A program made the position numbers and the translations under genes. Below are positions 17,580 to 31,048 of a stretch of DNA of 64,000 nucleotides, piece after piece. This DNA is from a virus (Duplodnaviria > Heunggongvirae > Uroviricota > Caudoviricetes): IMG/VR virus record IMGVR_UViG_2675903278_000002; one strand, 5' to 3'. The notes beneath the pieces were generated by a model. The model was not told the origin of the DNA, did no database searches, and saw only the letters and a list, made by a program, of their open reading frames with translations. Each line of letters opens with the position of its first letter. Positions within the stretch are counted from its first letter, which is position 1.

Positions 17580-17654
17580 GATGGTGTAGCTCAGCGGTAG
17601 AGCAGTTGGCTGTTAACCAACTGGTCGGTGGTTCGAATCCACCCACCATCGCCA
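17580..17654 (+). tRNA. tRNA-Asn (anticodon GTT)
   Basis: Manual fold: 7 bp acceptor stem GATGGTG/CACCATC, D-arm TAGCTCAGCGGTAGAGC, anticodon loop CTGTTAA, T-loop GGTGGTTCGAATCCACC, 3' GCCA. Confidence 0.75.
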
Positions 17655-17656
17655 AT

Positions 17657-17732
17657 GCCGGTTTAGCTCAGTTGGTAGAGCGCCTGCCTTGTAAGCAGGA
17701 TGTCAGCGGTTCGATCCCGTTAACCGGCACCA
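17657..17732 (+). tRNA. tRNA-Thr (anticodon TGT)
   Basis: Manual fold: acceptor GCCGGTT/AACCGGC, D-arm TAGCTCAGTTGGTAGAGC, anticodon stem CCTGC/GCAGG with loop CTTGTAA, T-loop GGTTCGATCC, 3' ACCA. Confidence 0.75.
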
Positions 17733-18052
17733 ACACAACAGGTAAGAGCATTGGGCGAATCGGCGATACTGACCCACAAGCCCGTAAATCGATAGAGTCA
17801 GACCAGTGCTCTTACCGTTGTGAGGAAGTGCAGCTCTTTGAAGCAACCAGAAGATAAGCATCTGGCTTCACAACACAACGATAAGATCATTACGGTTAAT
17901 CGTCGTTCATGTGCACAATGACTGGTCGAAAGGTAGTGATCTTACCGTTGTGATGAATGCACAGGCTGATGTGCCGCAACTACAGTAGTGCGCGCTTTGC
18001 GGGGCTTGCTACAACCCTGTGTCGGAGTTCAGCACCGACCATCACAATAGCT

Positions 18053-18139
18053 GGAGAGTAGGGAGCATGGTGCTCAAGCGGTCTTGAAATCCGTCCCATT
18101 GTGCAAACGATGATGGTTCGATTCCATTACTCTCCGCCA
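18053..18139 (+). tRNA. Class II tRNA with long variable arm, most likely tRNA-Ser (anticodon TGA); anticodon stem imperfect
   Basis: Acceptor GGAGAGT/ACTCTCC, T-loop GGTTCGATTCC, 3' GCCA, long variable region; anticodon loop CTTGAAA only with a mismatched closing pair. Confidence 0.55.
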
Positions 18140-18292
18140 GACACAGCGTTGAGCGGTTTGGCCTTTTAATCACCCAGATTAAGACTCCGCTAACATAAAC
18201 CAGACCGCTCAACGCTGTGATAGACAATTACGGCAGACGTTCTTAACCATAGCTTGCTAACATCCTAGCAACACTTTTTTCAGCGCAAAATT

Positions 18293-18318
18293 CAAAGGGG
18301 CTTCGGCCCCTTTTTTAC
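18293..18318 (+). terminator. Rho-independent terminator downstream of the tRNA island
   Basis: GGGGC-TTCG-GCCCC hairpin followed by TTTTTT. Confidence 0.7.
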
Positions 18319-30232: not shown

Positions 30233-30503
30233 AGAATTATGGCGCTTGTTGAGGAAGTCACTCCTCTTACGCACTTTGTTTTGCCATGCCGGCAGTTAGC
30301 TTCTGCCTTTGACTATTCATGCGGCAACCCCGCATTTCGCCACAATGGGCAATTCACTTTTATGGAATAAACTGGCCGTTGTGTCGATTTAATTAGCATG
30401 GCCTTACCATGCTAATTTATTCAACTTGTACAATCCTGCAAATCTATCCACTCAGGCTTACACCGTCTTCGTTATTGTAGAAATGAGGATCATCAGCGTT
30501 GAA

Positions 30504-30719
30504 TCAGCTTAGAGCAACGACATTTGCTGCTGCTGGGCCTTTAGCCCCATTCTCGATAGAGAATTCGACCTGCTGGCCTTCTTCCAAAGTGCGGAAATTA
30601 TTACTCTGAATTGCCGAAAAATGTACAAAAACATCTTTACTGCCATCAGCAGGAGAAATAAAGCCAAAGCCTTTATCAGAGTTAAACCATTTTACTAAAC
30701 CAGTCATTTTATTAGACAT
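30504..30719 (-). CDS. cspA: Cold-shock protein (CspA family)
   Basis: [21 protein letters not shown]... RNP1-like motif; 71 aa from the internal ATG at 30719. Confidence 0.85.
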
Positions 30720-31048
30720 AGATATTACCTTCTTAATTTTGTGAGCCACATAGTGCGGCGAGAATTTGATCTGTATAGATTGGGACTTACTTAGGCACTT
30801 AAGGAGGAGACTCACGAAGAAGGGAAATCAGAAGATAACACTGAACTGAGACTGCTTTACTAAAACTGCTTACATAAGGTCTGTCTTGCAAACCAACGAT
30901 GCTATTAACGCATACCCCTTCTTTTCATGCAACCTTTATTTTTCAAAGATAACTAATTTTTGTCACCATTGGTTTAGTAAACGTTAACGAACCAGACGAT
31001 GCCAGACACCTTTACAGAGAACAGATGCCCGCCAATTGGCGGGCATCA

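Follow-up and report, generated by a model that had tools for sequence, protein, structure and literature searches.

Transfer RNAs (tRNAs) with unusual 8/4 or 9/3 acceptor/T branches were recovered as false positives of the Rfam model for selenocysteine tRNA (tRNA-Sec) (Mukai et al. 2017, Nucleic Acids Res 45:2776; PMC5389517). According to that study, tRNA-Ser species of the 8/4 type occur in phages and proteobacteria, and the 8/4 tRNAs studied there, which are distinct from the one described here, fold, are processed and serylated, and function with EF-Tu and the ribosome in Escherichia coli. Here, we describe a tRNA-Ser(UGA) gene in a 64,000-nucleotide (nt) stretch of phage DNA (IMG/VR record IMGVR_UViG_2675903278_000002; hereafter the window). 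The locus is a real serine tRNA gene on an E. coli phage-plasmid, and its sequence leads us to file it as an (8/4) tRNA-Ser, not as a typical allo-tRNA or as tRNA-Sec. It is quite probably a working member of the 8/4 family that inserts serine at UCA-type codons, with a mismatch in the anticodon stem that is most likely tolerated.

The gene was delineated by ARAGORN, a check proposed in the preliminary description of the window. The program returned tRNA-Ser(tga) at exactly the interval where that description had placed a third tRNA (window positions 18053-18139, + strand). Read directly from the sequence, the gene is laid out as GGAGAGUA-G-GGAGCAUGGUGCUCA-A-GCGGU-CUUGAAA-UCCGU-CC-CAUUGU-GCAA-ACGAUG-AUGG-UUCGAUU-CCAU-UACUCUCC-G-CCA. 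The anticodon helix comprises the G27·U43, C28-G42, G29-C41 and G30-C40 pairs, and a U31·U39 mismatch closes the 7-nt loop. This is the mismatched closing pair that had been noticed around the loop CTTGAAA with the serine anticodon TGA, and the long variable region noted with it is also present, as a CAUUGU/ACGAUG stem capped by GCAA. A26 lies opposite C44 and makes extension of the anticodon stem impossible; the stem has 5 base pairs (bp) in the family and effectively 4 bp in the window gene. The D arm lacks A14 and the U8-A14 tertiary pair. G9 is the only base linking the acceptor stem to the D arm. The variable-arm stem continues without interruption into the T stem, and its final G is the nucleotide that would be named G49 in a tRNA with a 7-bp acceptor stem and a 5-bp T stem (7/5).

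Covariation among relatives indicates that the family folds as 8/4, with an 8-bp acceptor stem that includes A8-U65, a 4-bp T stem and position 49 incorporated into the variable stem. Relatives were gathered from IMG/VR with sequence patterns that leave positions 8, 49 and 65 unspecified; an initial 15-base pattern gave mostly chance matches and was tightened. Sixty-four unique relatives were parsed, and 11 with a different, short D arm were set aside to leave 53 sequences (alignment A2). Positions 8 and 65 are paired in all 53 (AU in 42, GC in 8, UA in 2 and UG in 1) with 11 double changes, so that position 8 (A in 42, G in 8 and U in 3) covaries with position 65. By comparison, 49:65 is mismatched in 8 of the 53 relatives. 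The nucleotide called position 49 instead pairs with the first base of the variable stem (columns 47:65 of the alignment) in 52 of 53 sequences, as CG in 43, UA in 7, GC in 1 and GU in 1. All four T-stem pairs are kept in 53 of 53. At columns 14:21, the sites of A14 and A21 in canonical tRNAs, an additional pair lengthens the D stem; this pair is CG in 43 sequences, GC in 7 and UA in 2, is unpaired in none and is gapped in 1. The D loop of the family is short, with an invariant AUGG. An unguided RNAalifold run on 30 distant relatives, from which the whole P1/SSU5/rV5 group was excluded, returned exactly the 8/4 cloverleaf. A 9/3 layout was also considered. G9·U64 could form in the window gene, but 50:64 is paired in 53 of 53 relatives and 9:64 is often mismatched, and this layout was rejected.

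The gene could alternatively be a normal class II tRNA-Ser of the 7/5 type, in which G49·U65 forms a wobble pair and A8 is unpaired; the 8/4 fold would then be an over-interpretation. ARAGORN does report a standard tRNA-Ser, and 45 of the 53 relatives are able to form 49:65. Two properties of the sequence taken alone weigh against the 8/4 assignment. The window gene permits both A8-U65 and G49·U65, with essentially equal predicted energies (-26.4 kcal/mol for 8/4 and -26.3 kcal/mol for 7/5), and, for every allele, the minimum free energy (MFE) fold predicted from the sequence alone differs from a cloverleaf. A non-cloverleaf MFE fold is common for tRNAs. Because single-sequence energies do not separate the two layouts, the 8/4 assignment for the window gene rests on homology and covariation. 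Both speak against 7/5: in the 8 relatives with a mismatched 49:65, 8:65 remains Watson-Crick or G·U; 8:65 is never unpaired despite its double changes; position 49 covaries with the first variable-stem base; and RNAalifold selects 8/4 without guidance. Among the features of a canonical 7/5 tRNA (U8-A14, a large D loop and a 49:65 pair), position 14 is here a paired C and 49:65 is not conserved. We therefore regard the 7/5 layout as very unlikely. An alternative fold had been suggested for this gene beforehand. That suggestion holds in that the cloverleaf is apparently 8/4 and not the assumed 7/5, but the anticodon and the serine assignment are unchanged by it.

Covariance-model scores are in line with the 8/4 fold. 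A family-specific model (R1) was built from the 30 distant relatives only, with the window gene and its close relatives excluded. R1 assigns 90.1 bits (E ~7e-25) to the window gene, 94.0 bits to the allele with A39, 92.0 bits to the copy in the P1-like phage-plasmid P7 and 87.4 bits to an rV5-like copy. The host tRNA-Ser(UGA) gene, serT, scores 41.5 bits on R1, and a canonical tRNA-Ser(GCU) from a T5-like phage scores 18.6 bits. On the general Rfam tRNA model (RF00005), the window tRNA-Ser was not reported at the gathering score (29 bits), whereas the neighboring Asn and Thr genes scored 75.5 and 73.1 bits. Host serT scores 57.5 bits on RF00005, and class II tRNAs in general are therefore not the problem; the failure of the general model on the window gene, next to its success on a canonical serine tRNA, is a further argument against 7/5. 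At relaxed thresholds, the best Rfam family for the window gene is bacterial tRNA-Sec (RF01852; 41.1 bits, below its gathering score of 47). In the tRNA-Sec alignment, the loop CUUGAAA is retained and A8 is base-paired as part of the acceptor helix. On this model, the P1-like and SSU5-like relatives score 43-47 bits and the T5-like copy 38.0 bits. The 8/4 fold explains why RF00005 fails and tRNA-Sec scores best, and hence why generic tRNA models miss or mis-score the gene. The covariance-model check that had been proposed yields a high score on R1, with an 8/4 fold and the anticodon UGA in place; the gathering score of the canonical model is not reached. The earlier statement that the acceptor, D and T arms fit a class II tRNA does not hold in its canonical sense, given A instead of U at position 8, the missed RF00005 gathering score and covariation that favors 8/4 over 7/5.

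The tRNA-Sec match does not amount to tRNA-Sec identity, which was rejected. The score is below threshold, the anticodon is UGA and not UCA, and the branch has 12 bp (8/4) instead of the 13 bp (8/5) of bacterial tRNA-Sec. The two also differ in the D stem, which has 4 bp in the window gene and 6 bp in tRNA-Sec. The likeness to the (8/4) tRNA-Ser described in PMC5389517 is closer. An 8-bp acceptor stem and a 4-bp T stem combine into a 12-bp branch in the window family as well, together with a long variable arm and G73 (some relatives have U73), a D arm that is similar in part, having an added stem pair and a short loop, and a location in phage tRNA clusters. Both groups also surfaced as sub-threshold or false-positive matches of the tRNA-Sec model. 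The window gene differs from the allo-tRNAs of the same source in its 5-bp anticodon stem (a longer stem is stated there for allo-tRNAs in general), in its 4-bp D stem (with 10:25 as G·A) and 5-nt loop, compared with 5-6 bp and a tetraloop, and in its normal serine anticodon. The D arm of the T5-like relatives has 5 bp and a tetraloop. Because the D arm is only partly Sec-like and the anticodon stem is not lengthened, the gene is filed as an (8/4) tRNA-Ser rather than as a typical allo-tRNA. The hosts differ too: here, the family occurs in phage-plasmids of E. coli and Klebsiella and in cultured phages of the rV5-like and T5-like groups, whereas the text of PMC5389517 names marine and alpha-proteobacterial phages, proteobacteria and rumen Clostridia. 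Host serT shares with the window gene the anticodon, G1-C72, G2-C71, A3, G73 and the long variable arm, and the anticodon stem-loop (positions 28-42) is identical between serT and the common allele of the family. Unlike the window gene, serT has the canonical 7/5 layout, U8 and a large D loop; the similarity is low outside the anticodon arm and T loop.

Sequence comparisons indicate that the tRNA-Ser family is under structural selection. The window tRNA-Ser is 95-97% identical to the genes of the P1-like phage-plasmids P7 and D6, compared with ~86% for the wider matched tRNA region. The window-type and P7-type genes differ by a compensated C-G to U-A change in the variable stem, and the E. coli and Klebsiella versions differ by compensated changes in two acceptor pairs and one D-stem pair. 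Across the 53 distinct sequences, 95% of the cells contain standard pairs and 22 of 28 pairs show double changes, values reached in 0 of 500 shuffles; in slid controls, the paired fraction fell to 37-54%. For the window gene itself, decay had been raised as a possibility. The single mismatch of this allele agrees with it, but nothing else does: the other stems are intact, R1 gives a high score, the gene is conserved above its surroundings, and the identical copy in plasmid pCP53-113k is annotated as tRNA-Ser without a pseudogene flag. A decayed tRNA provides a contrast. In the plasmid of E. coli F8111-1SC3, a tRNA-Tyr-like sequence that is not annotated in RefSeq lies between the Asn and Thr genes (L013 437-526). 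It carries multiple disruptions, the 5' and 3' strands of its acceptor are no longer complementary, and it looks like a real tRNA in decay.

The mismatch at position 39 is a polymorphism. In an alignment of 16 copies (A1), T39 is present only in the window and pCP53-113k, and A39 is present in P7, D6, the SSU5-like phage Cyrano, both CMS-2020a records, pU_B2_3 and others. Base 39 is the sole difference between the window gene and the gene of pU_B2_3, in which U31-A39 forms a pair. An IMG/VR scan, complete for the lineage of the window gene, yielded 64 parsable copies: 55 with A39, 5 with G39 (a U·G wobble) and 4 with U39. In that scan, U39 occurs in two variable-arm backgrounds and G39 in three. 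Among 335 E. coli records, 28 are identical to the window gene (complete plasmids); those listed come from pig, human and chicken sources on plasmids of 106-114 kb. The allele occurs both with a tRNA-Tyr inserted between Asn and Thr and without it (pCP53-113k and the window, respectively). The pCP53-113k copy is the one for which the full RefSeq annotation was opened, and it is entered as a plain tRNA-Ser. This distribution identifies U39 as a single derived A39-to-U substitution of a minority lineage.

The predicted cost of U39 is small. It amounts to 5.7 bits on the Rfam tRNA-Sec model (41.1 versus 46.8), 3.9 bits on R1 and ~1.2 kcal/mol in cloverleaf energy. Within the anticodon stem, the relatives lose pairing only at 31:39 (6 of 53 sequences). 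The mismatches include C31·A39, seen in 4 sequences of another lineage, and the tRNA-Ser(AGA) of Pseudomonas phage Pyxpy01 has U31·U39 as well. Among 698 unique ARAGORN tRNA predictions, drawn from the viral loci fetched for comparison, 31:39 is non-standard in 5.4%, compared with 0.3-1.6% for the three inner pairs. A literature search found no direct precedent for U·U at 31:39 in a tRNA-Ser; the papers found cover Watson-Crick swaps at 31:39 and one C31·U39 variant. U31·U39 is most likely tolerated, to judge from these comparisons, as a neutral or mildly deleterious change, and the U39 allele is probably still functional. The mismatch itself is thus minor, a single-base variant that would be tolerated or mildly harmful. 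Two considerations count against tolerance: the U39 allele scores lowest on the tRNA-Sec model among the P1-like and SSU5-like relatives (41.1 versus 43.1-46.8 bits), and a plasmid-borne minority allele could be mildly defective yet not purged.

A stronger form of this objection holds that the family is functional but the U39 allele is crippled and in the process of turning into a pseudogene. The broken 31:39 pair would enlarge the loop to 9 nt, to the detriment of modification, decoding or stability, and the allele would survive only because a plasmid-borne prophage can do without this tRNA. U39 is in the minority in both surveys, its covariance scores are reduced, and tRNA loss is known in this cluster, since P1 has no Ser gene and the F8111 plasmid has the decayed tRNA-Tyr. 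Nevertheless, the change is one substitution in 87 nt with all other stems intact, and the same substitution appears in a second variable-arm background; G39 also recurs. The allele is carried by plasmids from different hosts with different cluster layouts, mismatches at 31:39 are fairly common in phage tRNA predictions and occur in other lineages of the family, and the annotated copy bears no pseudogene flag. A crippled copy is therefore unlikely. A functional phage tRNA with a non-canonical anticodon arm, which the preliminary description had listed first, is the best supported of its options given covariation in every stem, conservation of the gene and the RefSeq annotation; the odd arm, however, is only a one-base polymorphism, and the common allele has A39.

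Serine identity in bacteria depends on the long variable arm, G73, G1-C72 and G2-C71, with a weaker contribution of G30-C40, and the anticodon is not read (PMC9976931). All of these elements are present in the window gene. The tRNA-Ser would be transcribed together with tRNA-Asn and tRNA-Thr and then processed. E. coli SerRS would charge it through the long variable arm, G73 and the G1-C72/G2-C71 pairs without reading the anticodon, and EF-Tu would deliver it to read UCA and, after modification of U34, probably UCG and UCU. Because the stem-loop 28-42 of the common allele is identical to that of serT, the same anticodon-loop modifications are plausible. We infer expression, serylation and decoding, as well as tolerance of U39, from these features.

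Codon usage points to serine insertion at UCA-type codons as the most likely function. In 50 long open reading frames of the window, UCA accounts for 21% of Ser codons (14.4 per 1000), compared with 11% (5.3 per 1000) in E. coli K-12 (odds ratio 2.2, p = 7e-9), although this argument is correlative and the host is represented by a single 50-kb K-12 sample. ACA, the codon read by the neighboring tRNA-Thr(UGU), shows the same tendency (29% in the window and 10% in E. coli K-12). The GC content of the element is 45.6%. The tRNA-Ser would supplement the single serT gene of the host for codons that the element uses about twice as often, and the supply of A-ending codons favored by an AT-richer element is the simplest mechanism.

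A role in counter-defense would be a different rationale. The tRNA would replace host tRNA-Ser(UGA) depleted by a tRNA-cleaving toxin or defense nuclease, which would cleave it poorly owing to the odd tRNA body and the recurrent changes at position 39. For other isoacceptors, phage tRNAs are known that withstand anticodon nucleases. The body of the window tRNA is strongly unlike that of serT, and position 39 changes repeatedly (to G and U from A, in several backgrounds) while the remaining anticodon-stem pairs are paired in 53 of 53 sequences. The stem-loop 28-42 of the common allele is identical to that of serT, however, leaving no evident way to evade an anticodon-loop nuclease; the analysis identified no defense that targets tRNA-Ser; and the codon bias is already a sufficient rationale. 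Counter-defense, which is compatible with codon supply and does not exclude it, is highly improbable as the explanation. A broader speculation, which we rate as quite unlikely, is that selection, not drift, lies behind the independent substitutions at position 39 (from A to U in two or more backgrounds and to G in at least two or three), which would evade a tRNA-Ser-directed nuclease belonging to hosts or rival elements or would retune decoding, that the 8/4 body is an anti-nuclease disguise retained by many coliphages, and that the hairpins flanking the tRNA genes (listed below) form a new class. Codon supply through a working 8/4 tRNA-Ser remains our preferred explanation.

The gene is widespread on E. 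coli plasmids. In RefSeq, 331 of 5426 complete E. coli genomes carry the 87-nt gene, with 334 of 336 places on plasmids, and it is annotated there as tRNA-Ser. An 8/4 serine tRNA of a kind so far known mainly from metagenomes thus sits on phage-plasmids in ~6% of complete E. coli genomes. Beyond the phage-plasmids, the closest relatives are the tRNA-Ser genes of rV5-like Vequintavirus phages (~88% identity) and T5-like Klebsiella phages (~79%), which places the 8/4 tRNA-Ser in cultured phages as well, annotated as an ordinary tRNA-Ser or unannotated. With natural A39, G39 and U39 variants of an 8/4 tRNA at hand in a model organism, its folding, SerRS recognition, compatibility with EF-Tu and the ribosome, and possible role in phage-host conflict become directly approachable.

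The tRNA genes and the backbone of the element have different affinities. The backbone is SSU5-like, with 98.4% identity to Cyrano over 95% of a 24-kb query, 96-97% to CMS-2020a and 80% to SSU5, and the remainder of the window matches SSU5-like elements only. The Asn(GUU)-Thr(UGU) pair is homologous to that of the P1-like phage-plasmids, with 85-88% identity between the window and P7 or D6. P1 has no Ser gene. In P7, the tRNA-Ser is left unannotated, and the D6 GenBank record remarks on an 'apparent UGA Serine anticodon but AA not called by tRNAscan-SE'. A literature search retrieved nothing specific on a tRNA-Ser in P1-like phage-plasmids. Since the window backbone is SSU5-like and its tRNA genes are shared with P7 and D6, the Asn-Thr-Ser module is common to two unrelated phage-plasmid families, namely, SSU5-like elements (the window, Cyrano, CMS-2020a and Klebsiella p4727) and P1-like elements (P7 and D6). 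The tRNA module has apparently been exchanged between phage-plasmid types.

The coordinates and basis of each feature are collected in the table.

Features of the tRNA-Ser(UGA) gene and its surroundings in the window
Feature	Position	Strand	Basis
tRNA-Asn(GUU), canonical	17580-17654	+	ARAGORN; RF00005 75.5 bits
tRNA-Thr(UGU), canonical	17657-17732	+	ARAGORN; RF00005 73.1 bits
Two long-stem hairpin elements in the Thr-Ser spacer	17734-17822 and 17869-17952	+	Inverted repeats; MFE -37.3 and -32.9 kcal/mol, z -4.8 and -4.3
tRNA-Ser(UGA) gene, 87 nt, CCA encoded	18053-18139	+	ARAGORN; covariance model R1 90.1 bits; identical sequence annotated tRNA-Ser in pCP53-113k
Acceptor stem, 8 bp, 5' strand GGAGAGUA; A8 predicted to pair with U65 (18128)	18053-18060	+	8:65 covariation in relatives; RNAalifold
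D arm: G10·A25 unpaired, 4-bp stem GAGC/GCUC, 5-nt loop AUGGU	18062-18076	+	Pairs 11:24, 12:23, 13:22 and extra 14:21
Anticodon arm GCGGU-CUUGAAA-UCCGU; anticodon UGA at 18085-18087; U31·U39 at 18082/18090	18078-18094	+	Sequence; alignment A1; IMG/VR counts
Variable arm: CC, then 6-bp stem CAUUGU/ACGAUG with GCAA loop	18095-18112	+	Columns 47:65 covariation
T arm: 4-bp stem AUGG/CCAU, loop UUCGAUU	18113-18127	+	Four pairs kept in 53/53
Acceptor stem 3' strand UACUCUCC, discriminator G73, CCA	18128-18139	+	Sequence; acceptor helix 100% paired across the family
Hairpin element, 20-bp stem, beginning 3 nt after the tRNA-Ser CCA	18142-18219	+	Arms 95% complementary; MFE -41.2 kcal/mol, z -9.1
Terminator-like GGGGC-UUCG-GCCCC followed by U6	18297-18316	+	Sequence reading; not listed by the consensus scanner

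The terminator-like hairpin is the probable end (intrinsic terminator) of the tRNA transcription unit. The two hairpins in the Thr-Ser spacer may belong to this unit. The three long-stem hairpins of the window are ~80-90 nt each, with terminal stems of ~20 bp that end in CACA(A/G)C...G(C/T)UGUG, and the two spacer hairpins differ by one compensated stem change. The number and position of the hairpins vary among relatives, with Thr-Ser spacers of 8 to ~490 nt, and phage Cyrano has none between Thr and Ser. A motif scan found the hairpin that follows the CCA end 3' of tRNA-Ser in nine of the loci retrieved (L001, L005, L008-L013 and L015; E. coli SSU5-type and Klebsiella-type copies were examined); the same scan did not find it in P7 (L004), D6 (L002) or pSA186_4 (L014). 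The window hairpins matched no Rfam family. A Y RNA-like (YrlA) identity was considered and rejected, as the weak YrlA matches fall on the Asn and Thr tRNAs instead. The hairpins could serve in processing by RNase III, act as small RNAs or be small mobile palindromes, and they may belong to a class of phage small RNAs or mobile palindromes that accompanies tRNA clusters and has not been described before.

In several relatives, the hairpin after tRNA-Thr encloses T-arm-like hairpins, namely, AGGGUUCGAAUCCCU in D6 (L002 1657-1743) and CAGAGUUCGACUCUCUG in CMS-2020a (L009 2105-2191), and a further case lies at L015 652-744. In D6, the predicted structure is a long stem that ends in a multi-branch tRNA-like junction (MFE -40.3 kcal/mol, z -6.1). 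This post-Thr element recalls Y RNA-like or tRNA-derived RNAs, and the Rfam YrlA model gives no match to it. Just downstream of tRNA-Ser, P7 (L004 2301-2416) and D6 (L002 2317-2437) contain matches to the STnc100 small RNA (43.0 and 39.6 bits, below the gathering score of 47); the Rfam scan of the window showed none.

Other tRNAs in the cluster of the rV5-like phage Mangalyan (L003) may be structurally unusual too. For its tRNA-Tyr, too, the best-scoring Rfam model is tRNA-Sec (33.7 bits), and ARAGORN interprets a 99-nt gene annotated as tRNA-Lys as an odd tRNA whose anticodon has 4 bases (the two genes lie at L003 1300-1386 and 1690-1788). Elsewhere in the window, a full-length Rfam match to the cspA thermoregulator is located at positions 30479-30897 on the - strand (185.7 bits, E 2e-49), and the element appears to carry a cold-shock-protein gene with a temperature-sensing 5' leader.

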